Part shown: piece by piece, positions 3,637 to 52,067 of the stretch
How positions within the stretch are numbered: position 1 is the stretch's first letter
Layout: each line of letters begins with the position of its first letter
Assembly: GCA_004322365.1 (NCBI GenBank)
Contig: SCTS01000002.1
Location: 12,993 to 76,992 of the forward strand
Length of the DNA: 64,000 nt
Direction: 5' to 3'
From: Patescibacteria group bacterium
GTDB taxonomy: Bacteria; Patescibacteriota; Minisyncoccia; Phycocordibacterales; Phycocordibacteraceae
Notes under the pieces: generated by a model
What the model saw: the letters and a program-made list of their open reading frames with translations, nothing else
What the model was told of the DNA's origin: nothing
The model's database searches: none
Program-made: the position numbers and the translations under genes

Positions 3637-5253
3637 TCAGGGGTTCACGCTACAATCCCGTGCTTCGTAGATGTATATATCTTTTCCTAGTTGTTGTATC
3701 TGGTAAAAAGACGGCATAAGCATTCTGCCGAGGTTTATATCAATATCAAACACATCAGCCACCCCATTACCAAAATGTGCGAGTGGCGTGCAATTCACCA
3801 CTTCTCGCTCAACAATAATAAGATCAGCGGCCGGCACATCGGTATGCGCTAACAAATCGGAATCGTTCGTAACAACGAGTGGCCGAAACGAAATATCGCT
3901 CGAGAGCGCTTGTGTATGTTGGCACGCGGAGCCACACGATGATGGTGCATACAAAGCGTACGAAACTTTGTTCATTGGGAGCGTAAACTCAAAAATATTT
4001 TCATCAATACGAATCTCCGTATCTCCGTAACGCTCTACTATATAGTCGTACGCCACATTGTAGGTCGTAGGTATGGAGAGCAATACTATCGTATACACAT
4101 ACACAGCGAGCCCTACAACAAAAAAGACGCGCGACACCAATCGCAAAGGTGGTTTGAATGAGGCGAGGAGAAAGAGTAGAAAGAAGCCGACAGGAGCGAT
4201 GTGTCGAACATTGAGCGCAAGTCCGTGGTCGGCCCGGAACACAACCGAAACCGCAATAATATAAAGTGCGCTATACAAAAGGGCGAGGAAGAAGAGCGCT
4301 TTGTTGCGTATGCCGGCATACACAGCTGGTATGAGCGCCAAAAGAAGCAAGGGAAACGATTCAACGGCTTGACGCACATTAACTATGAGCGACTCAAACA
4401 CCGTAAGCGACGTCTGCACACTTGCACCTGCAGAATTAGACACGAAAAATTGCATCACAAATCCGGAAGCCTGCTCAACAACATTTCCCGCATTCAGTGC
4501 AAAGAACCCCAAGAACACCACCATGCCAACTGCAATCATCACTATAAGTCGCTTGAAGACTGCGGGTGTACGCCAAAATACGAAAAGAAGTATCGGAATA
4601 TTAATGAGAAAGAGGCCGGCAAAAAGGAAATTAGACGCTGCCAGAAATGCCGTCATTATTGAAGTGAATGACATCCATCCCAATTGACCACGCTCTCGAT
4701 CTTCCGTTATTGCACGGTACAGATAGATAAAAGAAACAACAATGAGAAGAATCGAGAGCATCCACATTTTGCCTGAGCGCACAAGAAGCGTGGTAAGCAC
4801 ACTGCCGAAGGTAAGCATGAGGAGTGCGAGTCGCCACTCCACACCTTGAATGTGCGCTTTCAGAAATCGGTACACTAGTATCAAGAGCGCCACCGATGTG
4901 AGCGCAGAGACAATGCGCGGTACGATGAGACTATACGAAGGATTCTGAATAAGCGCAGTTTTCAAAGCCACGATGTCGAAACCGAAAAACGGAATACTGC
5001 CAGCAAGTGCGACCACCATGGCGACATAATTCTGATAAAACGAGAGTGTGCCGTACGCGACACCGTAGCCTGGTAGAAGCGTGTGCGCTTCAATGGCACG
5101 GAGCACTCCACCGCCAAATGCCCACACATCGGTGATAGTGTTCACCATAGGGAACGCGTACCATACGCCAACAAAAAAACTTGCGCCAAAAATCATAATC
5201 ACCCACTGTTCCAGCGTCATGGCACGGAGGATGCTTCGCATTCTATTCAACAT
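3637..5253 (-). CDS. Polytopic membrane protein, probable GT-C superfamily glycosyltransferase (ArnT/PMT-like)
   Basis: About 12 predicted TM segments and a C-terminal soluble domain. Start set at the internal Met (MLNRMRSILRAMTLEQW), because the longer ORF would overlap the divergent gtrA promoter region and the REP-like repeat. Confidence 0.4.
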   Translation of the reverse strand: MLNRMRSILRAMTLEQWVIMIFGASFFVGVWYAFPMVNTITDVWAFGGGVLRAIEAHTLLPGYGVAYGTLSFYQNYVAMVVALAGSIPFFGFDIVALKTALIQNPSYSLIVPRIVSALTSVALLILVYRFLKAHIQGVEWRLALLMLTFGSVLTTLLVRSGKMWMLSILLIVVSFIYLYRAITEDRERGQLGWMSFTSIMTAFLAASNFLFAGLFLINIPILLFVFWRTPAVFKRLIVMIAVGMVVFLGFFALNAGNVVEQASGFVMQFFVSNSAGASVQTSLTVFESLIVNVRQAVESFPLLLLALIPAVYAGIRNKALFFLALLYSALYIIAVSVVFRADHGLALNVRHIAPVGFFLLFLLASFKPPLRLVSRVFFVVGLAVYVYTIVLLSIPTTYNVAYDYIVERYGDTEIRIDENIFEFTLPMNKVSYALYAPSSCGSACQHTQALSSDISFRPLVVTNDSDLLAHTDVPAADLIIVEREVVNCTPLAHFGNGVADVFDIDINLGRMLMPSFYQIQQLGKDIYIYEARDCSVNP

Positions 5254-26681: not shown

Positions 26682-27591
26682 AGGCTTCAATAATGCGTGG
26701 AATAAGACTCTGGAGCGAATGATGTTCGCGAATGTACGAGGGAGAAAGTGGAAGCCCGTTGATTGCAGGGTCAGTGGAATCGACCAGGCAACCACAGGCG
26801 GCGGCCTCCAAAACCACTTTGTCCAAAGAGCCAGTTTCACTGCGGTGGATAAGCTTTGTGGCAATGCGGTATTCGTCGCGAAGCCCTAATTGCGTGAGTC
26901 CACCTAGAAAAGTAACCTGAACACCGAGCTCACGCGCGAGCGCCGTAAGGCGCTCGCGCTCAACACCCTCTCCTGCTATACGGAGGGCGACGCCTGCATC
27001 TTTTGCCACGCGAATTGCAAGGTCGTGACGTTTGGTGGGCATAAGACGCCCAACGGAAAGAAGATGATTCCCGCGGGACACCTTCTCATCTGGAGCGAAA
27101 AATTCGGTATCAATACCGTGACCCATGACTTGCAGTTTTTTAGATGGCAGTCGAAAACTTTCCTTTGAGGCAGTGAAAATAACATCCACAAAAAGCTCAG
27201 CGACACGCAGTTTTAAATCTACCGATTTGTGCGTATACCACAAACCTATTGATTTTTTCCACGATTTCCAAAATAATCCACCAAGAATCACATACTCCGG
27301 ATTCATGTGAACGAGTACGGTGTCATAGTTTTTTCGCAATTTCCAAATCAGATATAAAAACCGAACCGAATACCCTATCCGCTTCAACAAACCACTATCA
27401 TATATGATAGTGGTTTGTTCTTTGCCCAGAGAATGAACACGAACATTTGATGGAAGATTATGTTTCCCCTCTTTTAAACAAATCACCTCTATACTCTCCA
27501 CATGCTTTGAAAATTCTTCAATCCAACGATGAAAAAATCCTAAGATGGCATCATCCCTATCAACGATTTGTGTAACGAGAAGGAGCTTCAC
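26671..27591 (-). CDS. GT-B fold glycosyltransferase (GT4-like)
   Basis: 306 aa; MKLLLVTQIVD N-terminus and GT-B C-terminal half with E-x7-E-like region (VVLEAAACGCLV). Confidence 0.5.
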   Translation of the reverse strand: MKLLLVTQIVDRDDAILGFFHRWIEEFSKHVESIEVICLKEGKHNLPSNVRVHSLGKEQTTIIYDSGLLKRIGYSVRFLYLIWKLRKNYDTVLVHMNPEYVILGGLFWKSWKKSIGLWYTHKSVDLKLRVAELFVDVIFTASKESFRLPSKKLQVMGHGIDTEFFAPDEKVSRGNHLLSVGRLMPTKRHDLAIRVAKDAGVALRIAGEGVERERLTALARELGVQVTFLGGLTQLGLRDEYRIATKLIHRSETGSLDKVVLEAAACGCLVDSTDPAINGLPLSPSYIREHHSLQSLIPRIIEAYVA

Positions 27592-28109
27592 GAAAGTTCG
27601 TTGAAAGAGTGAATAACTGTATGAGTACCTGCCCCCGCCTTTCCATCACGACGCATTTCATAAAGTTGAACCTGAGGACAATGTAGAGCTACTGAATCAA
27701 GTTCGCTAATTTTATCATCAATGAAAATCAATGGCTCTTGATATGAAGTAAGCATACGGGCAATAAAAGTACCCTTCCTCTCATCGCCATTATAAAAGAT
27801 AGGAAAAGAGGGGTCGTCGTGAAATACACTTTCCAATTTTGCTTTTTGAAGTTCGACATTTCCCGCAGTAACTATTGCAGAATTGTCGTGATTCTTTCTC
27901 AAAAAATCATTAGCGTCTGCATACATAAAACGATCTAATTCCCCTGGAGCAAACACAAGCAGTCCTTTTGCTGTCAGAGAATTTAACTCAGTCGCCATTT
28001 CAACTTCAGAGAGAGAAAGAAGTCCACCAAGGTTGTCCCTCTCCAAAATGTAAGCCAGAAAAGCTGAAGTATCAAAAAGCGTTCTGTCGAAATCGAGAAA
28101 ATAGGTCAT
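27588..28109 (-). CDS. HAD-superfamily hydrolase/phosphatase
   Basis: FLDFDRTLFDT = HAD motif I (DxDxT); 173 aa. Confidence 0.5.
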   Translation of the reverse strand: MTYFLDFDRTLFDTSAFLAYILERDNLGGLLSLSEVEMATELNSLTAKGLLVFAPGELDRFMYADANDFLRKNHDNSAIVTAGNVELQKAKLESVFHDDPSFPIFYNGDERKGTFIARMLTSYQEPLIFIDDKISELDSVALHCPQVQLYEMRRDGKAGAGTHTVIHSFNELS

Positions 28110-29209
28110 AGAAGCGACTGAATTACATCAGCTATTTTTTTCGGATCATGACGAATGAGGCTCCGTTCAATAGCGTCGCCTTCAATCTTGTGAAGTGGCA
28201 CTACATCAGCAAATGTACCGCGAACTACACGCGAATCATTACCAAGATCATCAACCACAGGAAATGCATTTTTCTTTTCATAGTATTCCAAAATATCAGC
28301 CGGAATAGCACCGACATGCATGATTATGTGATCAGGCTTTCTTCCTGCATACGCCTCAATCTCTGCAACATGCTTTGATGCACTGTATCCACTTGTTTCA
28401 GAAGCAGTACTAAAAATATTGACGAAATAAATAAGACACGCATTTGATTGCCTGACAGCTTCCTTAAGTCCCGGTACAGCAAAGTTTGCCAAAGTCGATG
28501 TATAGAGATCTCCAGGACCTAAAATAATAAAATCGGCTGAACCAACAGCAAGCTCTGCTTGATCAGCGAGCGAAATCTTCTCCGAAACACTAAGTCCTAC
28601 AATTGCAGGGCCCCCTGGTGGACGAGCATTGATAGCGTGCTGACCAACAATCCTCTCACCACCCTCAAGCTCTGCTACTAAGGTTGCTGGGAAATCAGAC
28701 ACGGGCACCACATACCCACGAACACGAAGAATTTCCGAAACAGCACGAATGGCTGCACCGTCAGATCCAAGTTTGTCAGTGAGTGCAGTAAGTAAAAGAT
28801 TACCAAGGTTGTGTCCAGCAATATCCCCTTTTGAAAATCGGTAGGTAAAAATATCTCGAAGCATCGTTCCGTCTTTTGCAAGAGCAACAAGCGCTTGTCT
28901 GGCATCTCCCAAAGGAAGAAAACCGTACGAATCGCGCAAACGACCCGTTGAGCCACCATCATCCGCTACAGAAACCACAGCAGACAGAGAAACGCCCGGT
29001 AAAGACTTCAAAGCTGAAAGCACAACGAATGTCCCCGTGCCTCCACCAATAGTGACAACGCGTTTAGCGTTTGTTACAAAGCGATGCCCAGACACGAATG
29101 CATTGCGCACAGCATGAGCACGACTCTCTGGAGTACGGGCAGGGCCGAAAATCGCCTTAAAGTGCGTTTTGATACTCCGAGAGATGTTGATGTGAGGCTT
29201 CTTGTTCAT
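28106..29209 (-). CDS. YvcK/CofD-family protein (UPF0052; gluconeogenesis-factor / 2-phospho-L-lactate-transferase fold), paralog 1
   Basis: VVTIGGGTGTFVVLSALK and VVSVADDGGSTGRLR signatures. Confidence 0.7.
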   Translation of the reverse strand: MNKKPHINISRSIKTHFKAIFGPARTPESRAHAVRNAFVSGHRFVTNAKRVVTIGGGTGTFVVLSALKSLPGVSLSAVVSVADDGGSTGRLRDSYGFLPLGDARQALVALAKDGTMLRDIFTYRFSKGDIAGHNLGNLLLTALTDKLGSDGAAIRAVSEILRVRGYVVPVSDFPATLVAELEGGERIVGQHAINARPPGGPAIVGLSVSEKISLADQAELAVGSADFIILGPGDLYTSTLANFAVPGLKEAVRQSNACLIYFVNIFSTASETSGYSASKHVAEIEAYAGRKPDHIIMHVGAIPADILEYYEKKNAFPVVDDLGNDSRVVRGTFADVVPLHKIEGDAIERSLIRHDPKKIADVIQSLL

Positions 29210-30189
29210 AGTAGTTTACGAATAGCTGTAGCAATCTTCATTGAATCATGGCGAATGAAGCTTCTCGGAACCGTATCACCCGCAACCTTTTCAGCCACAA
29301 TCACATCAGCAAATGATCCGCGAATTATTGACGCATCCTGCGGTAAATCATCCACAATAGGAAATTCATTCTCTTTCTTATAAAGCTCCAAGACATCATC
29401 AGGAAATGCGCCAACATGCATGATAATCGTATCGGGTCGTCTTCCTACATACCTCGTTATCTCTTCAATATGATGTGATGCAGTGTAATTGTCTGTCTGT
29501 CCTGCTTTCGTAAATAAATTCACAATGTATACAAGGTGCGCCTTTGCCCCCGTGACAGCTTCAGTAAGACCTGAAACAGTAAAATTTGCTACAGTTGAAG
29601 TAAATAAATCTCCAGGTCCTAAAATAAGTACATCGGCTTCGGCAACTGCCTCGAGTGCATCTGGTGAAACTGCGACAGATTCTTTTGTCTCAAGCGAAAC
29701 TATTGGTGATCGTCCTGATATTCTCTCATCAATGAGATGTTCGCCAGTAATTTTTTCTCCATTCTCAAGATGAGCAACGAGAGTTGCGGGTCGATCTGAA
29801 ACTGGCACCACACGCCCATCAACACGAAGTATCTTCGATGCAGCTTCTATAGCAAGAGCATCTGACCCAAGAATGTCAGTAAGTGCAATCAAAAAAAGAT
29901 TTCCAAAATTATGTCCGTTGATATCGCCTTTTGGGAATCGGTAATCAAACAAAGAGCGCATGAGTGGAGCGCCCGTATCATCAGCAAGAGCAATCAACGC
30001 TTGTCTTGCATCTCCTAACGGAAGAAAACCATACCCATCACGAAGACGGCCAGTAGAACCTCCATCATCAGCAACTGAAACTATTGCTTTCAGACACACA
30101 CCTTCGACATGCTTCAAGCCTGACAAAACAACAAAAGTGCCAGTGCCGCCACCAATAGTCACAATATTCTTTCGAGGTAAATCTCCCAT
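29206..30189 (-). CDS. YvcK/CofD-family protein, paralog 2 (tandem duplicate)
   Basis: IVTIGGGTGTFVVLSGLK and IVSVADDGGSTGRLRDGYGFLPLGDARQAL; collinear with the upstream paralog along the whole length. Confidence 0.7.
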   Translation of the reverse strand: MGDLPRKNIVTIGGGTGTFVVLSGLKHVEGVCLKAIVSVADDGGSTGRLRDGYGFLPLGDARQALIALADDTGAPLMRSLFDYRFPKGDINGHNFGNLFLIALTDILGSDALAIEAASKILRVDGRVVPVSDRPATLVAHLENGEKITGEHLIDERISGRSPIVSLETKESVAVSPDALEAVAEADVLILGPGDLFTSTVANFTVSGLTEAVTGAKAHLVYIVNLFTKAGQTDNYTASHHIEEITRYVGRRPDTIIMHVGAFPDDVLELYKKENEFPIVDDLPQDASIIRGSFADVIVAEKVAGDTVPRSFIRHDSMKIATAIRKLL

Positions 30190-38998: not shown

Positions 38999-40534
38999 CT
39001 ACACAGGCAGACCCACACCAGAAATAGGCTCCACATGAAGCATCTGTCGAAGATCATCTTCGGGAATCTCTGAAGCCTGCTTTTCTTCCTTCTTAGGAGA
39101 GGCATCTTCTTTTTTAGTCGCACCATCCGTCTTCGCATCAGGAGTTTTTGGTTTTGGTTTTTCACTAGCATCCGCCTTCTTACCTCCTGCTGGTTCTCCT
39201 GGTGTTGGCGTAGCTGTACGCTTGTTAAAGATAGATCGGAATGTATCTGAAAATGACCCTGGCTCACCCCCCTTTCCTTTATCTTTTGGATCTTCTTCCT
39301 TAGGAGCTTTGAAAAGCGCATCAACTTTTACTCGCTGAGTTGTGTATTTTTCTCGAGAAAAGGTCTGCAAATCTTGGTATGACTCCCCCGTTCTCTCGGG
39401 GCGTGGAAGTGCCATGGCAAAAAACGGACGCGCGCGTACTGAATCAATAGTGAGTGCAACGCACATTTCACCTTCCTTCAATTTTGATAAATCCTCTGGC
39501 GAAACATACGGATAAAAAATCTTTTCAGCGAGTGAGAAATCTGCAGGATGCGGTGCAAAGGCAAGAACCGATCCACATCGTCGAAATGCTTTTTCATATA
39601 ACTCTTCATCTTCTTCATTCTGTGGAGTACTTGCAAATGCGCATGCAACTTTCCGCTCTGGCAGTATGAGCTCAATATCTTTTTCAGAAAGGTATTTCAA
39701 ACAGTCATATAAATAGAGTGCGGTGTTTTCACCAAGTACCCCCCGAGCACGAGCTGCGTGTGTAAAGATGCGCACCAAGGGCGTTATGCGTGTTGGAAAC
39801 ATTCGAATACGCGACACATCAACAACAATCACAGCCCCAGCGTTATTTTGTGCGAGTGAAAATTTTGATTCTGTCTGCCCAAGAACATTGCGCACCAGAG
39901 TATCTTTCGCAATGTAACGGCCATGCTCAATAATTAACGCAGCATCATCTTCGTTCGATTTCATAATCTCTTCAAAACGAATACTCTCTGGAGTTTGAGC
40001 ACCAAACATTTTGTCGCGCGCCTTTGGATCAGCAACTGCGTTATATAAACAAAGTGCACTTACATCTTGGCGAGCAAGAGAAAATTCAGCGATGTATTCG
40101 GTAAGGGCGCTTGGAGCAATGCGATACATGCTCGCAAGTGCTTCAGAAAAAACGCCAACGGCTTTTTCACCGAGCGGACGAAATTCATTAATAGGATTCC
40201 ACGAAAAAGGATGTTCTCCGTCAGAAGGGTCAAGAAACACAAGTCGCTCGCGAGCACTCTCGCTTAAACGCTCTAAAAGCATCGGCACCAAATTTCCTGA
40301 TGCATCCAAAATAACCACACTCATCCCTCGCTCAATATCTTGCAGAGCCATACCTGCAAAAAGAGTTGCACGGCCACTGCCAGCCTTCCCCATCACAGAA
40401 AAATGTTCCAAGCGGTCAGCGTCTTTAATACCAAACGGCACCACACCATCACGAAAAGCTGTTTTCCCGATGTAGGTCACTTTGCCACCCCAATCCATTG
40501 CGCCAGTGTACCTCGTTAGATAATTAATATTCAA
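38999..40534 (-). CDS. TraG/VirD4/TraD-like P-loop NTPase (type IV coupling-protein-like) with degenerate Walker A and K/E/P-rich C-terminal tail
   Basis: VMGKAGSGRATLF...GMSVVILDASGN resembles the T4CP GxxGSGKS...VVxDPKGE region, but Lys is replaced by Arg. No N-terminal TM. C-terminal 100 aa is low-complexity (PKDKGKGGEPG...KPKPKTPDAK). Confidence 0.35.
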   Translation of the reverse strand: MNINYLTRYTGAMDWGGKVTYIGKTAFRDGVVPFGIKDADRLEHFSVMGKAGSGRATLFAGMALQDIERGMSVVILDASGNLVPMLLERLSESARERLVFLDPSDGEHPFSWNPINEFRPLGEKAVGVFSEALASMYRIAPSALTEYIAEFSLARQDVSALCLYNAVADPKARDKMFGAQTPESIRFEEIMKSNEDDAALIIEHGRYIAKDTLVRNVLGQTESKFSLAQNNAGAVIVVDVSRIRMFPTRITPLVRIFTHAARARGVLGENTALYLYDCLKYLSEKDIELILPERKVACAFASTPQNEEDEELYEKAFRRCGSVLAFAPHPADFSLAEKIFYPYVSPEDLSKLKEGEMCVALTIDSVRARPFFAMALPRPERTGESYQDLQTFSREKYTTQRVKVDALFKAPKEEDPKDKGKGGEPGSFSDTFRSIFNKRTATPTPGEPAGGKKADASEKPKPKTPDAKTDGATKKEDASPKKEEKQASEIPEDDLRQMLHVEPISGVGLPV

Positions 40535-40626
40535 TATTGACTATTGCCTCTTTGGGTAGTAACAGGCCTAGCGAGTGAGCTTTTCAGCTCAACCTTATAG
40601 ATCCACCTCTTTTACAGAAAAACTAC

Positions 40627-40668
40627 CGATATAGTTTAATCTAACGATCGTTAGATTAAACTATATCG
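40627..40668. promoter_or_regulatory. 42-bp perfect palindrome CGATATAGTTTAATCTAACGATCGTTAGATTAAACTATATCG (operator-like), copy 1
   Basis: Read directly; centered on GATC. Lies between the PaaX-like gene stop and the T4CP-like gene start. Confidence 0.75.
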
Positions 40669-40701
40669 TCTTTCTCTCTATCTCCGTGCGGTTTTTGAAG
40701 A

Positions 40702-41283
40702 TTATTTAGCTGGAGACAAACCAAAGCGTCGGCGAAGAGCTCCATCATTCTCTATGGTGTCAGCAATGATGTAGAGAACCTCCTGCCCCATCTTAAGGTC
40801 AGCCTTGATGAGTATAATCAAGTCCTCACAGTCATACGGATACGCCCACACACTATTCTGCAAACGAACAAACCCAAGATTGATCAGCGCCATTCGCATC
40901 TTGTCGCGCAAACCTCGTCGTTTCTCCTCAATATCAAAAACAAGTACACGCCACTTACCATCCCACTGCTTTGGTTTTTTAGGAGTCACTGAACCCTCAT
41001 GCACCAGCATCGCAAATCGCTCCCCTTTCGGAGTCAAAGACGCATACGAAGTGCCATTTCTTTTTTCAAGAACGATGTACCCTTCACGAATCATTCGTGA
41101 AAAAGATTCTTTCACCTGATAGCGCCGTTGGTTAAGAAACTTCATCTTTCCCAAAGCCCCAAGAACATTTGGTGCGACAGCGGCAACAGCAAGCGTGCCA
41201 GTAAGCGCTACTGCATTAATGATTGCATTGTTAATCTTTGTACGGCGAATCTTCCCTTTCAGCGCTTGTTCAATTTTTCCCAT
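40702..41283 (-). CDS. PaaX-family transcriptional regulator (wHTH + PaaX middle domain)
   Basis: QWDGKWRVLVFDIEEKRRGLRDKMRMALINLGFVRLQNSVWAYP matches the PaaX WDGxW / GFGxLxxSVW core; N-terminal wing RNGTSYASLTPKG; 193 aa. Confidence 0.55.
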   Translation of the reverse strand: MGKIEQALKGKIRRTKINNAIINAVALTGTLAVAAVAPNVLGALGKMKFLNQRRYQVKESFSRMIREGYIVLEKRNGTSYASLTPKGERFAMLVHEGSVTPKKPKQWDGKWRVLVFDIEEKRRGLRDKMRMALINLGFVRLQNSVWAYPYDCEDLIILIKADLKMGQEVLYIIADTIENDGALRRRFGLSPAK

Positions 41284-41323
41284 ATGCGACAGAATTAATG
41301 TAGTAAAAATGGCTAAATAATAG

Positions 41324-41365
41324 CGATATAGTTTAATCTAACGATCGTTAAATTATACTATACAG
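41324..41365. promoter_or_regulatory. Operator-like palindrome copy 2 (imperfect right arm: CGATATAGTTTAATCTAACGATCGTTAAATTATACTATACAG)
   Basis: Read directly; about 40 bp upstream of the PaaX-like start. Confidence 0.65.
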
Positions 41366-41411
41366 AGAGATACATGGCACGTACTGATGAAGTCAGCGCC
41401 TTTGCAAAAGG

Positions 41412-42080
41412 CTAGTTCTTTTTTCGAAGAGCGAGTGTTTTCCAAACAATGATCCCTAAACTAATGACCACAAAAACCCCTCCCATAATGTAGGCTCTGT
41501 ATTCAAAACTAATAGGAAGTCCAAAAAAGCTAAAGAGGTATCCTTCTAGAAATTCGTGCACAAGTGGTGGCATCAAAACAAACGCGAGCGAAAATGGAAC
41601 CCAAAAGTAGCTGAAGGAGAATAAGGCCTTCAATGTACTGTGAAAACTAGCGGTGTACTTATCTAAAAACACCGTCAGTAACTTCCCAACGATAATTCCT
41701 ACACTCACCATGACAAAAAGGCTACTCATTAAAAATACGGCATCTTTTTGAATGAAAGAGTAAATTGGCATCATTGCACCGCCTGGTTCTGATGCAACCA
41801 CAATAACCAGTATTGAAAGTGGAACCCACCACATCGTAAACTTAAGCCATGATTTAAAAATCGAAGAAGAAACAAAAATGAGAAAGAAGGCGGTGGGTAG
41901 AGTTACAATTGAAAAAAGGTAAACAGGTGTGAGCAAACCAAAAGATTGATGTACTAATGACCCATAACAAGCATCGAGAGAATCAACACACCAATGTGCA
42001 ACATAATCTAATGTTATCCAAAAAAATATCAAAAATAACGGCATTGCCTGTTTTATTTTCATAGATTTATAGATGATCAA
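41412..42080 (-). CDS. Hypothetical polytopic membrane protein
   Basis: 222 aa, about 6 TM helices, no recognizable motif; stop/start overlap (ATGA) with the large secreted hydrolase gene. Confidence 0.4.
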   Translation of the reverse strand: MIIYKSMKIKQAMPLFLIFFWITLDYVAHWCVDSLDACYGSLVHQSFGLLTPVYLFSIVTLPTAFFLIFVSSSIFKSWLKFTMWWVPLSILVIVVASEPGGAMMPIYSFIQKDAVFLMSSLFVMVSVGIIVGKLLTVFLDKYTASFHSTLKALFSFSYFWVPFSLAFVLMPPLVHEFLEGYLFSFFGLPISFEYRAYIMGGVFVVISLGIIVWKTLALRKKN

Positions 42081-45000
42081 AAAAGAAAATCCAAAAACTT
42101 AAATGAACTCCTAAAACCATTGTATACCTGCAAAATAAAGTCAGAGAATCCCCTCTGTTGAGAAACGGGGCGGAAAGGCGTGACTGTTTGTATAATTGTT
42201 TGAGTTTTTTGAACAGAATTTTTTTCTTGAACTCTGGCTACTTCCTGTACACTTTTTTTCGAGATAACTTGAATATTCTCTACAGGCGTATCTGTTGCGT
42301 GAGCTTGAGTAGATGTGAGGTTAACGAAAACGGCAATAGTACTTGTGCCAGCAACCATACCTACAGAAGCATTCCAAATTGGCCCTCCACCGCCAGCTTG
42401 AACCGGAGCTTGTGTCGAGGTCTCTGCGGGAACAATAGGTTCTTCATAGATTACAGTTTCTCCGACTAATGGTTGAAGTGTGATATCGACCACCTCATCA
42501 CCATCTTCATCAACTTCAAGTAATGAAGCAGTCTCGATACCATCGCCTATACTTAAAGTTACTTTGGTGTTTCCAGTCGTGGGTAGGTTTGCAAGAGTAG
42601 TTTGTTTCATCAGGTTATTTTCTTCCACCTCTTGAATATCAAGTGAAAAAGTTCCTACATCAAGCCCATTTAAAACAACTTGGTACTGAGGCCCTTGCTG
42701 AGCAGTGATGTATTGCACATCTCCAAGCTCTCCATACTCAACATCGGGAATTTCTTGGTCAAACGAGCCATCTTCATTGTACCCAACATGATTTCCAGAT
42801 GAGTCGAAGAGCTCAAGGGTGAGAGGAGAATGGAGGAAGAAGCGGAGCTTTTTTGCTTGTTTTAATGTAGAAGGTTGTTCTGTTTGAACATAACTAGTAA
42901 GTGTGTTTGTTGTATTAAAAATATTTTTAATAAACTGACGCAATTCAGGAACTTCTAGAATATTTCCATGGTCACTTGGATTGTCTTTATGGTCACTATT
43001 ATAGTCTTCTAAATTTACCCAATACCTCTTCACATTTTCAGTGCTCGTACTCATCATGAGAGCACTCGGAACGGGCACGACGCCGTCACCATCTTCAACA
43101 AAAAGTGGACGATACGCCCTTGGATTAAGAGCAGTGAAGGCACTCACCTGCGGTGCATCATAAAATTCAATACCTGCCACTGTGCCCACTCCCCACCCAG
43201 CGATTTGATACAAAGTAATATTTTCTGGTGGCACCCATACATCAAGATTGTCGTGAAGAGACTTGGCATAGTCAACAAGCGCTGAATTTAAAACATTTGC
43301 TTTGCCAATTTGGTTTGAAAGCGGTTTCTCTCTTCCGCCGTCTCGCGCGAGCAAAAAATCACCAAGCTCTGTACTGTTTCCAACTACTAACCCATACGCA
43401 ATTCGCTCTTTCTCAAACGCTTTTTCACCATCAAAAATAACTACAGGATGATTAATGTCTTTCGTGTCATCAAAATACTTTTGTGACGGAAGGAGGTGAT
43501 ATCCCATCGGAGAATTTTCTGCAAACTCACGTGCGGTTTTTTTATCAACAACTGAAACAGGGAAAAAAGAAATATCCTCTTTATAACCATAAAGAAGAGC
43601 GCCAATGCTTTGTGGTGCGCCACTTTGCGGAACGCCGACAAAAATAACTCTGTCGACAAGTTTTTGAGCCCCAGTGTCTCCGAGCTGTTGCAGTAATGCC
43701 TTAGTAACTAATCCACCATTTGAATGCGCAACAATAGTCACCTTCCCCGTTTGCGACTGCGATGCGAGCTCACGAAGTGTCTGCGTAATGTAGGGCGTTG
43801 CTGTAGCAGTGTCGTAAAAAATCTTTCCATCGACCTCGGCACCATTCGCCAAAATGTCATCGAGAGAAAGACGCCAGTCATACGCAACAGGTTGCCAGTC
43901 TGTTATGGCTCTGGCGCTCTTGAGTTCATCCATGTCAGAAATGAAAGATTTGTAGTAGTCCTTTCCGCCTGCGGAATCAAGAATACTTCCCTCTTTTACA
44001 TAGACATTCCCAGTGCTCTTGCCGTTTGAATCAAGAAACATTCCTCGCACATCAGCGTTCCCCTCAAGTAAATCAGGTTCCCATAACTTATTTTCCGCAC
44101 CACCACTCTCCACATAGAGTCGACTTCCTTTAATTCCTGGCAAAAACAGCACACTCGAGCAACACTTCTGAAACTCAGTGGGAGAAAACGGCGTGGTTTG
44201 AATAACAGAAGCATCTCCGTCAATCGTTCCGTAGAAAGAAACATAGGTTGAATCAGATATATCCCCCGCACACCCCGTGCAGGAAAGTGCAATATCGTTT
44301 TCGTCGTCCCACAGCACAAAGTGAGTCGACGAGGTCATGCGAAATGAGTAATAGCGAATGTACGGCGTGAAAGAAGAATCTGGTGAAAGCGATGAATAGC
44401 TGGGTACACTCGTGACACACGACTCATCGCCCACCAACACTGCCGTACGAAACACTCTCCCGTCGTTATACGGAGTCTTCAGTCGCAAGTGGACACGCAG
44501 CAAACCATCCACATACTCTGCACTTTCTGAGAAATCAAAATAATAACCACTCGCACTACCTGCATTACAGGGCGTAGGTTTTTCTATTGAATTTTGAAAC
44601 GTGGGAGGTGTTGCATCTTTTTCTATATGTAAAGTTTGTGAAGTAAAAACACTCCCGCCGTTATCTATGGTTCCCTCAAAAGAAATCCTTGTGTAAAGAG
44701 GCACTGCGGGTATATCAAAACTTGCCATCATTACCTCATTTTGATCATCCCATACATCAAAATGAGTGCCTGAGGTGAAGCGAATACTCCAGCTTACAAC
44801 CCCAGCCGGAAGAGCTACGGATACAAACGAATTTGCTGACGTGAGGGAATTACACTCGTCATCAATATACGACCAACGGATTTTAAAAGAACGACCGTCC
44901 GAATACTGCGGTAGATTATGGAAATTGTGAATTAAATACCCTGCATCTGAATACTGTATATTTTCATACGAATCAAAAAAGTATCCACTTGCGGAAAGAG

Positions 45001-45097
45001 CGGTTGCCCCACATGGAGCGGTATCAGCAAATACCTGTATAGGGAAAAAGACAGAAACGAAAAATAGAACGACAACTGTCGTCACTGTTCTCTTCAC
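42077..45097 (-). CDS. Large secreted alpha/beta-hydrolase (LCAT/PGAP1-like lipase/esterase/acyltransferase) with two N-terminal Cys-containing repeat domains
   Basis: Signal peptide. Two about 150-aa repeats (CGATALSASGYFFDS.. / CNAGSASGYYFDFS..). Lipase-type motifs VLFLPGIKGSRL and VTIVAHSNGGLV (GxSxG nucleophile elbow). 1006 aa; GTG start. Confidence 0.5.
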   Translation of the reverse strand: MKRTVTTVVVLFFVSVFFPIQVFADTAPCGATALSASGYFFDSYENIQYSDAGYLIHNFHNLPQYSDGRSFKIRWSYIDDECNSLTSANSFVSVALPAGVVSWSIRFTSGTHFDVWDDQNEVMMASFDIPAVPLYTRISFEGTIDNGGSVFTSQTLHIEKDATPPTFQNSIEKPTPCNAGSASGYYFDFSESAEYVDGLLRVHLRLKTPYNDGRVFRTAVLVGDESCVTSVPSYSSLSPDSSFTPYIRYYSFRMTSSTHFVLWDDENDIALSCTGCAGDISDSTYVSFYGTIDGDASVIQTTPFSPTEFQKCCSSVLFLPGIKGSRLYVESGGAENKLWEPDLLEGNADVRGMFLDSNGKSTGNVYVKEGSILDSAGGKDYYKSFISDMDELKSARAITDWQPVAYDWRLSLDDILANGAEVDGKIFYDTATATPYITQTLRELASQSQTGKVTIVAHSNGGLVTKALLQQLGDTGAQKLVDRVIFVGVPQSGAPQSIGALLYGYKEDISFFPVSVVDKKTAREFAENSPMGYHLLPSQKYFDDTKDINHPVVIFDGEKAFEKERIAYGLVVGNSTELGDFLLARDGGREKPLSNQIGKANVLNSALVDYAKSLHDNLDVWVPPENITLYQIAGWGVGTVAGIEFYDAPQVSAFTALNPRAYRPLFVEDGDGVVPVPSALMMSTSTENVKRYWVNLEDYNSDHKDNPSDHGNILEVPELRQFIKNIFNTTNTLTSYVQTEQPSTLKQAKKLRFFLHSPLTLELFDSSGNHVGYNEDGSFDQEIPDVEYGELGDVQYITAQQGPQYQVVLNGLDVGTFSLDIQEVEENNLMKQTTLANLPTTGNTKVTLSIGDGIETASLLEVDEDGDEVVDITLQPLVGETVIYEEPIVPAETSTQAPVQAGGGGPIWNASVGMVAGTSTIAVFVNLTSTQAHATDTPVENIQVISKKSVQEVARVQEKNSVQKTQTIIQTVTPFRPVSQQRGFSDFILQVYNGFRSSFKFLDFLF

Positions 45098-45160
45098 CTA
45101 TACATCTTTGCCCTTCTAAAAAAATGCGCTACCTCATTCACTGCAACTAAGGGGAAAACT

Positions 45161-45202
45161 TCGATATAGTTTAATCTAACGGTCGTTAAATTATACTATA
45201 TC
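45161..45202. promoter_or_regulatory. Operator-like palindrome copy 3 (CGATATAGTTTAATCTAACGGTCGTTAAATTATACTATATCG)
   Basis: Read directly; about 65 bp upstream of the hydrolase operon start. Confidence 0.65.
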
Positions 45203-45286
45203 GTAGGAGGAGTGGAAAGAGCAAAAAAGGTCAGCCTCTGAATACCACATTCAGAGTAAGCATACAAAGGTCGGACCTTTGTAAAC

Positions 45287-45326
45287 TTAATACACCCCTA
45301 ATTCGTGCGAATTAGGGGTGTATTAA
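45287..45326 (-). terminator. Strong hairpin TTAATACACCCCTAATTCG-TG-CGAATTAGGGGTGTATTAA (19-bp perfect stem), candidate terminator after the P-loop kinase gene; related to the REP-like GTATAC-C5 family
   Basis: Read directly. Two further hairpins at 45265-45281 and 45235-45255; the latter is followed on the minus strand by a T-run. Confidence 0.45.
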
Positions 45327-45346
45327 AGTGCTATCAGCAAGAGGTA

Positions 45347-47951: not shown

Positions 47952-48197
47952 ACGGTCATGGTATCAAATCGTCTGTGGAGATAATCACGTCAAACTTAAC
48001 AAAGTTTGACGTGATTATTATCTATTCTCGTCTTGGCGCCTTGTGGGGCGTCCGCGACGCGAATTTGCACCTAGGACTTCTTGGTGCCATATCTATGGCA
48101 CTCGCGAAGCGAATTTGAGCTTACAAGTCTTTCCGATGATGATATAACCTCGTCGAAATTTGCTAATTTCGACGTGATTTTTACGCTTAAAAATCAG

Positions 48198-48268
48198 CTG
48201 CGGGACCTGGACTCGAACCAAGATAGCCTCCTCCAGAGGGAGGTGTCCTACCATTAGACGATCCCGCA
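48198..48268 (-). tRNA. tRNA-Gln (anticodon CUG)
   Basis: Cloverleaf folded by hand: acceptor UGCGGGA/UCCCGCA (U1-A72 and G73 are Gln-like), D-stem GUCU/GGAC, anticodon stem CCUCC/GGAGG with loop CUCUGGA, T-arm CUUGG-UUCGAGU-CCAGG; no encoded CCA. Confidence 0.7.
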
Positions 48269-48276
48269 ATTCTTAA

Positions 48277-48332
48277 CTAGCTTCTAGCTTTCAGCTTCTA
48301 GCTGTTAGCTGTTAGCTGTTAGCTTTTAGAGA
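48277..48332. repeat. Heptanucleotide tandem repeat (CTAGCTT/TTAGCTG units, about 8 copies)
   Basis: Read directly; TAG recurring every 7 nt between the tRNA-Gln 5' flank and the 3' end of the membrane-protein gene. Confidence 0.7.
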
Positions 48333-48966: not shown

Positions 48967-49111
48967 ATCGTCAGTATACTCTCAGAAACAAAGCATTTTC
49001 TCCATGTATCACTGTAGCACTACAGTGATACATGGAGAAAGAAAGCGAAAATAAAACCTCGAGAACATCGAGGGATTCTACTTCAGACTACGGTGCGCGC
49101 TTCGTTCGCAC

Positions 49112-50828: not shown

Positions 50829-51014
50829 AATAGGCGCTGACCTACAATTGAATACGTATCAAGAGTGTGAGGAGGCATCTGGGCCTACGATTCACCAGCA
50901 ACTTGTCGAAAGATAAAGTGCTACCAGCCCTTCGGGGAAAGATATCTTACACAAAATCTTTCCTTAATAGGGAAAGATTTTTTATTTATTATTCACTCAT
51001 TAATCAACATCAAT

Positions 51015-52067
51015 ATGCTTCACTTACTTAAGACATACACAACCGAGAGCGTTACCGCAGGACATCCCGACAAAGTCTGCGATCAAATATCAGATGCAAT
51101 TTTAGATGCCTGCTTAACGCAAGATCCAACAAGTCGAGTAGCTGTCGAGTCTTTTGGCAGTCATGGATACATGATGCTCGGCGGTGAAGTGCGGACAAAT
51201 GCGACAGTTGATTATACAGGTATCGCCCGTAAGGTCTATACAGATATTGGCTACACAGAACCGTTAGATATTCTTGAACATATCGCCAAGCAATCTGGAG
51301 ATATTGCGATGGGTGTAGACACCGGTGGCGCAGGTGACCAAGGCATCATGTATGGCTACGCTACAAATGAAACAAAAGAAATGCTCCCATTAGGTGTCGT
51401 ACTTTCTCATGCACTTGCACGCCGACTAGAAGCGCTTCGTCGTGACGGAACACTTCCCTGGGCACGACCAGATGGAAAAACACAAGTCACCATTTCAAAT
51501 GGCAAAGTAATTACTGCACTCACTTCAACTCAGCACACAGCGGATGTTTCTCAAGAAGAAATTCGCGCAAAACTCACCGAGCATTTGTTCGGGTCAGTAT
51601 TGGGAGATCTATCGGGAATTGAAATACTAGTGAATCCAACAGGTCAATTTATTCAGGGAGGATTTGAAGCAGACGCAGGTCTCACTGGACGAAAGATAAT
51701 GGTAGACACCTACGGAGGTTTGATGCCACACGGGGGCGGAGCTTTCTCAGGAAAAGACGCTACAAAGGTTGATCGCTCCGCTGCGTACATGTGCCGATTT
51801 GCTGCAAAGAACCTCGTTGCAAATGGCTATGGCACAAAAGTATTAGTGTCAGTTGCCTACGCTATCGGTCGCGTGGAGCCAGTGATGGTTGAAGCATTTG
51901 ATGATTCTGGAAAAGACTTGAGCGAGATTGTGCAGAAAAACTTTGACTTCCGTCCACGGGCAATTATTGAGCGCCTAGGACTCACCCGCCCAATCTTTCA
52001 AGCAACAGCAGCATACGGACACTTCGGCGTTGAAGGTAGACCATGGGAAAATATTGAGAAAATCTAA
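51015..52067 (+). CDS. metK: S-adenosylmethionine synthetase
   Basis: ESVTAGHPDKVCDQISDAILDA and GGGAFSGKDATKVDRSAAY signatures. Confidence 0.9.
   Translation: MLHLLKTYTTESVTAGHPDKVCDQISDAILDACLTQDPTSRVAVESFGSHGYMMLGGEVRTNATVDYTGIARKVYTDIGYTEPLDILEHIAKQSGDIAMGVDTGGAGDQGIMYGYATNETKEMLPLGVVLSHALARRLEALRRDGTLPWARPDGKTQVTISNGKVITALTSTQHTADVSQEEIRAKLTEHLFGSVLGDLSGIEILVNPTGQFIQGGFEADAGLTGRKIMVDTYGGLMPHGGGAFSGKDATKVDRSAAYMCRFAAKNLVANGYGTKVLVSVAYAIGRVEPVMVEAFDDSGKDLSEIVQKNFDFRPRAIIERLGLTRPIFQATAAYGHFGVEGRPWENIEKI

Follow-up and report, generated by a model that had tools for sequence, protein, structure and literature searches.

The window, the whole 64-kb stretch of DNA analysed here, contains a minus-strand gene cluster punctuated by three copies of a GATC-centred 42-bp palindrome. 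The features are as follows.

38999..40534, minus strand: 511-aa P-loop ATPase with HerA/FtsK/TraD-type matches, sub-threshold only
40627..40668, no strand: PAL1, a perfect 42-bp palindrome CGATATAGTTTAATCTAACGATCGTTAGATTAAACTATATCG, both arms of subtype A, CGATATAGTTTAATCTAACG
40702..41283, minus strand: 193-aa winged-helix and Cas2-like (PaaX_M) protein, Pfam PF20803 E 6e-20, candidate palindrome binder
41324..41365, no strand: PAL2, a 42-bp copy with 4 mismatches, a hybrid of A and B arms
41412..42080, minus strand: 222-aa hydrophobic (membrane) protein, no family match, sharing 4 bases with the end of the LCAT-like gene
42077..45097, minus strand: 1006-aa secreted-type alpha/beta hydrolase with an LCAT domain, Pfam LCAT E 4.7e-13
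45162..45203, no strand: PAL3, a 42-bp copy with 3 mismatches
45284..45329, minus strand: canonical G+C-containing terminator hairpin 3' of a 173-aa kinase gene, separating that gene from PAL3

With every gene here on the minus strand, each palindrome copy follows one unit and lies upstream of the next. PAL3 precedes the LCAT-like and membrane genes, lying 64 bp upstream of the LCAT-like ORF and past the kinase-gene terminator; PAL2 is 46 bp beyond the stop of the 222-aa gene and 40 bp upstream of the start of the 193-aa gene; PAL1 is 33 bp beyond the stop of the latter and ~93 bp ahead of the 511-aa ORF. A preliminary description of the locus had placed the first two copies correctly and the third one base too low, and it had rightly recognised a PaaX-type protein with a WDGKW motif that is bracketed by the palindrome. 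The full 64 kb holds no further copy. In shuffled sequence, the 42-mer gave 0 matches and the half-site 0.01 versus 5 observed. PAL2, the weakest palindrome of the three with arms of 18 bp, was detected by the half-site search and a repeat finder. As single-stranded DNA, PAL1, PAL2 and PAL3 fold with -16.9, -5.1 and -10.0 kcal/mol, respectively, and the PAL1 hairpin has a z of -8.4. The best promoter-like matches across 7.5 kb overlap PAL2 (sigma70-like, 10/12, GTGCCA-17-TATAAT, with the -10 within the distal arm) and PAL3 (10/12, TTTCCA-17-TATAAT).

The 193-aa protein is predicted to comprise a complete winged helix and a Cas2-like domain. In a Foldseek search with the AF2 model, PaaX 8A39 (E 4.5e-6) is the top match, as it is by sequence, and other matches are to AspA, MarR and F93 winged helices and to Cas2 and VapD homologues. 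PaaX, the GntR-type phenylacetyl-CoA-responsive repressor (PDB 8A39, 3L09), shares the N-terminal winged helix, the Cas2-like dimerisation domain that follows it and WDGKW. The earlier idea of a dimeric winged-helix operator has its precedent in PaaX of E. coli, which autoregulates and binds inverted half-sites in a 39-bp dyad, TGATTC(N27)GAATCA (PMC9493321). However, PaaX has 316 aa and a C-terminal effector domain, which Pfam and NCBIfam profiles do not find in the 193-aa protein; the latter scores 49 bits against the NCBIfam PaaX cutoff of 264.6, while it passes the Cas2 cutoff (29.7 bits versus 24.5) and matches PADLOC Cas2 models. It also retains the active-site Asp of Cas2 (FDI), at a position where PaaX reads LLSEG. 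This residue, D117, is invariant across 111 family sequences and absent from E. coli PaaX and Rv0674, and several further acidic residues are invariant or almost so. The likeness to Cas2 of CRISPR-Cas adaptation modules includes the ferredoxin-like beta-alpha-beta-beta-alpha-beta fold with Asp at the end of strand 1 and an association with partly palindromic repeats of CRISPR-repeat length. By contrast with Cas2, the 193-aa protein is fused to a winged helix, is accompanied by neither cas1 nor a repeat-spacer array, and is associated with repeats that are solitary and dispersed. The family is highly conserved with a uniform length of ~190 aa, and variation in these otherwise 60%-identical proteins lies in the recognition helix. 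No paa genes lie near the 193-aa gene, and the family gene has no conserved neighbour or operon partner among the loci compared.

In the preliminary description, the locus was read as a local, effector-responsive and autoregulated repressor with three operators, serving the LCAT-like/membrane operon, its own gene and the ATPase gene. Within the window this fits, since all three copies are upstream of transcription units and promoter-like matches overlap two of them. Moreover, the LCAT-like gene is linked to the 193-aa gene in L001, L046, L049 and L002, and in L002 the LCAT-like pair is again palindrome-bounded beside the regulator despite rearrangement. However, the linkage is limited to near relatives: the 80 more distant loci lack LCAT adjacency, with the sole exception of a partial match in L072, where an LCAT-like N-terminus comes after the PaaX_M gene. 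The gene called T4CP-like does lie downstream of PAL1, but its HerA/TrwB matches are sub-threshold (DUF87 18.4 bits, cutoff 23.2; TrwB 15.5, cutoff 20.5; CedD 23, cutoff 600; PADLOC mad8 2e-6, HerA 5e-5), and the corresponding 516-aa ATPase gene of L002 has no palindrome in front of it. Together with the missing effector domain and the dispersal described below, by which it is already largely refuted, these observations leave the local repressor model with little probability.

What does recur is the pairing of palindrome and gene. Palindromes lie on both flanks of the gene in the window, L001/L034, L046 and L049 (orthologous copies of PAL1 being present in L034, L046 and L049), in L002/L003 (73% identity), where the gene order is rearranged, and in the Vogelbacteria homologue L019 (36% identity), where the arms differ and the core is the same; L004 (72% identity) has the upstream copy on a contig that ends ~90 bp beyond the gene. 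Gene and palindrome co-occur in relatives at 36-73% identity and after rearrangement. Both flanks are readable in 66 metagenomic homologues; 35 of these (53%) have a long, lineage-specific palindrome (arms >=12 bp, within 170 bp) beside the gene, and in 7/66 the same palindrome is on both flanks, with a different sequence in each lineage, versus 0/361 control genes. All repeated palindromes in the metagenomic loci are at or adjoining the PaaX_M gene. They usually lie ~25-50 bp ahead of the start codon and 0-35 bp past the stop codon, often abut these codons (L072, L078-L081, L087, L104, L120), and are found even where the neighbouring gene is convergent. In other words, the palindrome family travels with the winged-helix/Cas2-like protein across candidate-phyla-radiation bacteria. 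Conceivably, this protein is not needed for what the palindromes do; they could be structural DNA, hairpins of a terminator-like kind or targets of a different factor, with adjacency incidental to expression of the gene. About half of the homologues have no strong palindrome nearby, and contigs of Paceibacterota, Vogelbacteria and Saccharibacteria share an identical core, TAATCTAACGRTCGTTAGATTA, despite a protein identity of only 36%. Yet lineage-specific palindromes on both flanks in 7/66 versus 0/361 genes would hardly arise unless the gene or its product were directly involved, and we regard this explanation as very improbable.

The palindrome is also dispersed. In three closely related Paceibacterota genomes of ~0.8 Mb, it is present in 15-20 copies per genome, all intergenic, beside unrelated housekeeping genes such as those for RecG, GlmS, Fmt, PepQ, AdoHcyase, L9, L7/L12, PheS, GluRS and NUDIX proteins, among which no regulon theme was seen. 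The three copies in the window are the home cluster of this genome-wide intergenic family, and not the small regulon for hydrolase and ATPase genes that had been proposed; a widespread dispersed repeat unrelated to these genes had been named as the outcome that would speak against such a regulon, and it is largely what the three relatives contain. Gene orientations around 49 palindrome spacers (tandem/divergent/convergent 29/10/10) resemble those of palindrome-free spacers (72/29/24), i.e. there is no depletion between convergent genes, and productive directions do not have better -35 boxes than unproductive ones (mean match 2.60 versus 2.44 of 6). Dispersal would suit a centromere-binding or nucleoid-associated factor of the AspA, ParB or Noc kind with the palindromes as scattered loading sites. 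AspA winged helices are the best matches of the N-terminal domain (TM 0.72, rmsd 1.8 A), the sites occur on all five VMHB01 contigs whatever the gene orientation, and the family is conserved without an operon partner. However, in known systems of this type a single site sequence is conserved over wide phylogenetic distances and sites inside genes are tolerated, while the sites here differ by lineage and are strictly confined to intergenic DNA; there is no linked ParA-like partner, and many lineages have only the gene-adjoining copies within 12 kb. A role in chromosome organisation or segregation is, consequently, improbable.

The palindromes are islands of identity inside diverged, indel-rich spacers. 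They are homogeneous within a genome and their arms differ between lineages around a conserved G+C centre, TAAYYTAACGRTCGTTARRTTA; there are symmetric subfamilies (A/A, B/B, GC..GC, GG..CC). The arms covary strongly, with double changes in 15/21 pairs and 90% of cells paired versus 81% in shuffles, and the covariation extends to site-specific outermost pairs. Such pairing might be expected if the hairpins were transcribed, as parts of 5' and 3' untranslated regions or of the segments between cistrons, with the Cas2/VapD-like domain as a hairpin-directed ribonuclease or RNA binder that processes them, the two on its own mRNA included, in RNase III-style autoregulation. The position of the downstream copy close behind the stop codon would fit, as would the asymmetric centre, whose sense-direction reading in tandem contexts is GT 11 times and AC twice, these sites not being independent, and the Cas2 and VapD homologues among the structural matches. 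However, 10/49 copies lie between divergent genes, where transcription is not required, and the N-terminal domain has the classical winged-helix fold of DNA-binding proteins. The stems are A+T-rich without a conserved U-tract, the T-run after PAL1 being confined to the window, while canonical G+C-rich terminators exist in the same genomes. An RNA-level system is, therefore, not likely.

The main rival, which we consider possible although rather doubtful, is that the palindromes are hairpin-forming, duplicative repeats that the gene product recognises and cuts, copies or maintains, as a non-HUH analogue of a RAYT sitting between REP sequences. As in REP/REPIN systems, the palindromes are dispersed and extragenic, differ between lineages, and flank a single-copy, apparently vertically inherited gene; RAYTs are also single-copy and REP-associated (PMC5581495). 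The palindromes are, in addition, neutral to context and bracket the gene on both sides irrespective of its neighbour. The swapped order of palindrome-bounded PaaX and LCAT units between the window and L002, the invariant D117 and other acidic residues, and a polA-holA copy that is present in two genomes and missing from relatives with 77-82% PolA identity, in which the spacer is 28 bp long or occupied by an ORF, all point in this direction. By contrast, the 193-aa protein has no transposase domain and is not an HUH/IS200-type tyrosine transposase, its fold is that of a repressor, the copies number 3 to ~20 and not tens to hundreds, and they are single perfect palindromes and not REP doublets with a spacer. 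No target-site duplication or clean empty site was seen, and 16/18 site groups are common to two or three related genomes, which gives little sign of recent movement. Mirrored changes could also come from template-switch "perfecting" of quasi-palindromes.

We suggest, with a probability of roughly 0.4, that the palindrome is the cognate dimer site of the 193-aa protein, giving autoregulation and orientation-independent boundary sites. The Cas2-like domains would dimerise as in PaaX, seated on the G+C centre, and the two winged helices would reach the outer lineage-specific arms ~26 bp apart; binding, dimer geometry and any repression or roadblock effect are what we infer. The copy ahead of its own gene overlaps the -10-like TATAAT, and binding there would result in negative autoregulation; binding just past its own stop codon and at the dispersed copies would result in a roadblock or boundary between transcription units. 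This proposal is favoured by the gene-site association out to L019, by PaaX as top match with its autoregulatory 39-bp dyad, by lineage-dependent arms alongside a recognition helix in which the otherwise conserved family varies, by the identity islands, by the typical spacing to start and stop codons with promoter-like matches at PAL2 and PAL3, and by viral contigs, in which nothing was found. It is disfavoured by the half of the family without a strong adjoining palindrome, by the lack of a regulon theme, of convergent depletion and of better -35 boxes, and by the fact that by-eye inspection saw no recognition-helix residue tracking centre type. Also, perfect 42-46-bp symmetry with mirrored site-specific changes exceeds the needs of a dimeric operator, and a pure repressor does not explain the invariant Asp. 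Compared with those of PaaX, the sites are perfect over the whole 42 bp, dispersed genome-wide and also downstream of the gene.

In RTP/Ter of B. subtilis and Tus/Ter, the gene for a small DNA-binding dimer (a winged-helix protein in RTP) adjoins one of some ten dispersed intergenic sites and is autoregulated through it. However, Ter sites have polarity and are restricted to the terminus region, while the palindromes are symmetric and on all contigs. If the cognate dimer site proposal is correct, such sites would number at least 15 across the genome, with their home cluster in the window, and the system would not serve to switch a single pathway; effects on the ATPase gene and on the LCAT-like/membrane pair would arise only because these are chance neighbours of home-cluster copies in this clade. 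The palindrome is a member of a repeat family paired with the protein and not a private switch for lipase-like and ATPase genes, and it is this pairing, and not linkage to LCAT, the ATPase or any other conserved partner gene, that generalises.

We suggest a tentative model, to which we assign a probability of about 0.4, in which a GATC-centred 42-bp palindrome is the dimer site of a 193-aa winged-helix/Cas2-like protein and serves both in autoregulation and as an orientation-independent boundary or roadblock. In this model, the Cas2-like domains of the protein dimer would rest on the conserved palindrome centre and its winged helices would read the lineage-specific arms, about 26 bp from each other. 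The palindrome copy upstream of the gene would mediate autoregulation, and the downstream and dispersed copies would act as boundaries or roadblocks regardless of their orientation. The features of the window on which the model builds are the following.

40627-40668, PAL1, perfect 42-bp palindrome
40702-41283, minus strand, gene for the 193-aa protein
41324-41365, PAL2, palindrome copy with four mismatches
45162-45203, PAL3, palindrome copy with three mismatches

The preliminary description had recognized all three palindromes; PAL1 and PAL2 lie where it placed them, while PAL3 is equally real and lies one base further rightward. In searches of the window, five half-sites were observed versus 0.01 in shuffled sequence, matches to the 42-mer in shuffled sequence numbered zero, and the 64 kb contained no palindrome copies beyond the three. 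All genes around the palindromes are on the minus strand. In the order of transcription, a gene for a 173-aa kinase is followed by a terminator hairpin (45284-45329), PAL3, the genes for a 1006-aa LCAT-like hydrolase and a 222-aa membrane protein, PAL2, the gene for the 193-aa protein, PAL1, and the genes for a 511-aa P-loop ATPase and a 477-aa LTD/PKD protein. The 511-aa protein had been labelled T4CP-like. This label is not supported, as no TrwB, TraD or VirD4 domain scored above threshold (TrwB_AAD_bind, 15.5 bits with a cutoff of 20.5; TraD, 17 bits with a cutoff of 366) and the protein gave only a generic HerA/FtsK-type P-loop signal. Elsewhere in the window, a SAM riboswitch (Rfam RF00162, 46.1 bits; gathering score 44.4) at 50853-50948 on the plus strand directly precedes a 350-aa ORF (51015-52067); a pair of neighbouring paralogues (367 and 327 aa) at 28106-30189 gives rise to direct repeats that are 70-74% identical with a spacing of 1100-1106 bp; and a 7-nt tandem repeat (TAGCTTT, 7.4 copies, 48278-48329) adjoins tRNA-Gln (48197-48268). 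Three further long perfect or near-perfect palindromes (27386-27419, 47981-48018 and 48997-49040) occur once each in the window, have no sequence relationship to the 42-mer and may serve other regulators as operators.

The 193-aa protein is neither a PaaX equivalog nor a CRISPR Cas2. It shares with PaaX the central Cas2-like PaaX_M domain (PF20803; E 6.2e-20, 71.5 bits versus a cutoff of 24); however, it is far below the PaaX equivalog score (TIGR02277; 49 bits versus 264.55), its gene has no paa linkage, and it lacks the effector (phenylacetyl-CoA) domain, with the chain ending at residue 193 and no match to PaaX_C. The Pfam PaaX N-domain also gave no match, and no paa catabolic genes were found in the window region or in the gene-scanned related loci. 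The likeness to Cas2 lies in the fold, the profile match (TIGR01573, 29.7 bits versus a cutoff of 24.5, residues 112-149 on profile positions 3-41; PADLOC Cas2 models, E 8e-8; Foldseek Cas2 matches to the structural model, probability 0.99) and D117, which is at the position of the strand-1 Asp in the Cas2 profile, is invariant in 111 sequences, and is missing from PaaX (LLSEG there) and Rv0674. By contrast, no cas1 gene or CRISPR array neighbours the gene: there is no repeat-spacer array in the window, and no Cas1 among the genes scanned at 37.5-49 kb or in precomputed Pfam listings for four relatives (L001-L004). With defence-system models, the proteins of the locus gave only the Cas2 match and weak HerA/mad8 matches.

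An AlphaFold (AF2) model from 111 homologues predicts two domains, first a winged helix with its helices at 16-28, 33-43 and 50-66 and its wing at 70-83, and then a ferredoxin fold of the Cas2 type. Structurally, the model is closest to E. coli PaaX (8A39, E 4.5e-6); next come the winged helices of AspA, F93 and MarR and then Cas2 proteins. The N-terminal domain has the H-S-H-H-S-S topology of AspA, F93 and MarR at a pLDDT of about 57-70, while in a shallower model from 25 sequences residues 1-56 were unstructured with a pLDDT below 50. A membrane anchor at residues 17-45 was downgraded because the 111-sequence model folds these residues as helix 1, strand 1 and helix 2 in an AspA/MarR-like manner; because they are uncharged, a membrane segment retains some plausibility. 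Searching the PDB with the C-terminal domain as a single sequence gave no match. The family is sizeable: at an E below 1e-30 it comprises 485 clusters (50% identity), almost all with a length of 185-200 aa (about 190), from sources named as Parcubacteria, Kaiserbacteria and Patescibacteria. In E. coli, PaaX recognises TGATTC(N27)GAATCA and acts as a repressor of its own promoter (PMC9493321), so that a dyad of about 40 bp is in keeping with a PaaX-type fold.

A scan with the core TAATYTAACGRTCGTTARATTA in one genome per species returned 50 blocks, and in three closely related Paceibacterota genomes the palindrome was present in many copies.

Palindrome copies per genome, with up to three core mismatches allowed
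VMHB01: 15 copies, distributed over all five contigs, of which contig 4 corresponds to the window
JAGOSG01: 16 copies
JBBAAE01: 20 copies

All these copies are intergenic without exception. The genes beside them (RecG, GlmS, Fmt, PepQ, AdoHcyase, HhH-GPD glycosylase, L9, L7/L12, PheS, GluRS, NUDIX proteins, PolA and tRNA genes) are functionally unrelated and form no coherent target set. When intergenic spacers of 90 bp or more were compared, the palindrome-containing ones were tandem in 29 cases, divergent in 10 and convergent in 10, a distribution equal to that of palindrome-free spacers (72, 29 and 24, respectively). Convergent spacers are not depleted, the targets are functionally incoherent and there is no -35 signal (matches towards gene starts are no better than towards gene ends), which does not fit a regulon of transcription-factor operators. 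A promoter within the palindrome was rejected: the -10-like TATAAT is real, but lacks this directional -35 signal, and in other lineages the TATAAT-like hexamer is displaced or missing. An intrinsic terminator is contradicted by the A+T-rich stem, the absence of a conserved U-tract and the presence of palindromes between divergent genes; the T-run after PAL1 occurs in the window only and not in its orthologues, and canonical G+C-rich terminators coexist in the same genomes. The element does not qualify as a canonical REP, operator set or terminator. That these dispersed sites serve chromosome organisation is improbable in our estimate. The core was also found on contigs binned outside the candidate phyla radiation (CPR), i.e. 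L010 (labelled Simkania), in which palindrome, gene sizes and spacings are identical to those around the copy at 6789 in L033, and L018 (76 kb, labelled Thiobacillus), in which A+T-rich sequence directly surrounds the match; both contigs probably belong to CPR bacteria and were mis-binned. Viral contigs yielded neither palindrome copies nor protein homologues, and a phage origin was rejected on this basis.

The palindrome and the gene for the 193-aa protein stay together across relatives. VMHB01 and JBBAAE01 encode orthologues of the protein with 97-98% identity. In L002 and L003 (73% identity), the order is palindrome, gene, palindrome, LCAT gene, gene for a 137-aa protein, palindrome; relative to the window, two palindrome-bounded units are swapped and all three palindromes are retained. 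A diverged copy is 28 bp upstream of the gene in L004 (72%), and in the Vogelbacteria locus L019 (36%) palindromes with an identical core and different yet symmetric arms lie to either side of the gene. Two-sided flanking was found in five lineages and in 7/66 metagenomic loci, with the gene giving a single tblastn match per genome among the blocks examined. The metagenomic comparison covered 80 loci with homologues at 39-58% identity, many of which have near-perfect palindromes of 32-52 bp adjoining the gene, often directly abutting its start or stop codon. Their sequence is lineage-specific and their design is common, with arms rich in A+T around a G+C-rich centre (GCTATAGC, CCTATAGG, CGRYCG or GCGGCCGC); by eye, no residue of the recognition helix tracked the type of centre. 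Among the 66 genes with both flanks readable, a palindrome adjoined the gene in 35 and was present on both sides in 11; the identical palindrome occurred on both sides of seven of these homologues versus 0/361 other genes. As a separate observation, a 5.2-kb Logan contig with a 99%-identical PolA (L137) terminates inside the palindrome (5190-5221), consistent with the repeat or hairpin breaking short-read assemblies.

These data also bear on the small, dedicated and autoregulated local regulon, comprising the LCAT-like operon and the T4CP-like gene, that the preliminary description had proposed. The co-occurrence of regulator and palindrome is supported by the flanking in the rearranged L002/L003 loci and in L019. 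LCAT adjacency, however, is limited to near relatives and one partial match, the palindrome before the ATPase gene is absent in L002, and no neighbouring gene family is present in more than 7/47 loci. Moreover, a widespread dispersed repeat unrelated to these genes had been named in advance as speaking against such a regulon, and this is for the most part what the genome-wide search revealed, making the local regulon very improbable.

The main rival to our model is a repeat-and-keeper system resembling REP sequences and RAYTs, which are single-copy and REP-associated (PMC5581495). We consider this system less likely than a dimer site with boundary function, yet it better explains the two-sided, codon-abutting bracket around the gene, the context-neutral dispersal of copies, the symmetry of the palindrome subfamilies and the retained Asp at the Cas2 position. 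The likeness lies in dispersed extragenic palindromes, here 15-20 per genome, with copies flanking a single-copy gene. On the other hand, the 193-aa protein matches PaaX_M/Cas2 only and has no HUH Y1 (IS200/IS605-type) or other transposase domain, and movement of copies is not evident. A polA-holA copy is present in two genomes, and relatives whose PolA is 77-82% identical lack it. This comparison indicates turnover of copies; the spacers in the relatives have diverged too far to reveal a clean empty site or a precise insertion. In its most specific and more doubtful form, this rival is a new CPR keeper system in which the Asp-retaining winged-helix/Cas2-like protein would recognise and cut or copy lineage-specific 32-52-bp hairpin palindromes, which would bracket the protein's own gene and seed solitary copies around the genome.

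Of the 18 site groups, 16 are common to two or three of the Paceibacterota genomes, and the palindromes stand out as identity blocks within diverged, indel-carrying orthologous spacers. Arm positions covary, with changes on both sides in 15/21 pairs. Paired cells amount to 90.3% versus 80.8% in shuffles (0/500 as high) and about 27-36% in slid controls, and the outermost site-specific bases are complementary too (e.g. ACCTG...CAGGT and CACGG...CCGTG). The arms form symmetric subtypes, A (CGATATAGTTTAATCTAACG) and B (CTGTATAGTATAATTTAACG), with some hybrids, among them PAL2 and PAL3. This covariation implies that hairpin or cruciform potential has been preserved or that sites have been copied; template-switch repair of quasi-palindromes could yield the same pattern. 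With respect to such hairpins, it is improbable that the 193-aa protein processes them as RNA, and least probable of all readings that they act independently of the protein. In JBBAAE01, the central GATC reads GGTC at many independent sites (L049, L052, L022, L013, L027 and L036) relative to the VMHB01 and JAGOSG01 orthologues, and in almost all cases the altered strand is the sense strand of the adjacent genes. The A-to-G change is thus parallel and strand-biased, and it eliminates a GATC (Dam/MboI-type) site. A second, G+C-rich inverted-repeat family (GTATACCCCCACACC...GGTGTGGGGGTATAC) is present in the window (5268-5287/5362-5381 and 19519-19540/19810-19831) and in relatives (L042 682-724 and 1747-1789; L054 2406-2448). 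In the alignment of orthologous spacers, L042 has an extra hairpin unit relative to L054 that is bounded by a direct GTATACCCC and looks like a polymorphic MITE-like insertion.

In the portions of the literature covered by full-text searches (PaaX with Cas2-like; palindromic intergenic repeats in Patescibacteria), we found no description of this palindrome-gene pairing. Neither of the database labels for the family, "PaaX repressor" or "Cas2 endonuclease", fits, and regulator-adjacent palindromes should be counted genome-wide before a local regulon is inferred. Few DNA-binding proteins are conserved throughout the reduced, mostly uncultivated CPR bacteria; this family is among them, and the lineage-specific palindromes are a concrete candidate for its DNA partner. 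If the protein is a repeat maintainer, it would represent a second, unrelated route to the REP/RAYT lifestyle using the Cas2 fold. Such a system would parallel RAYT/REPIN without an HUH protein and would be a stand-alone pair of Cas2 and palindromic repeat outside CRISPR. If the protein instead regulates genes or marks boundaries, as in the model preferred here, the palindromes would mark the borders of transcription units in genomes for which there is almost no knowledge of gene control.
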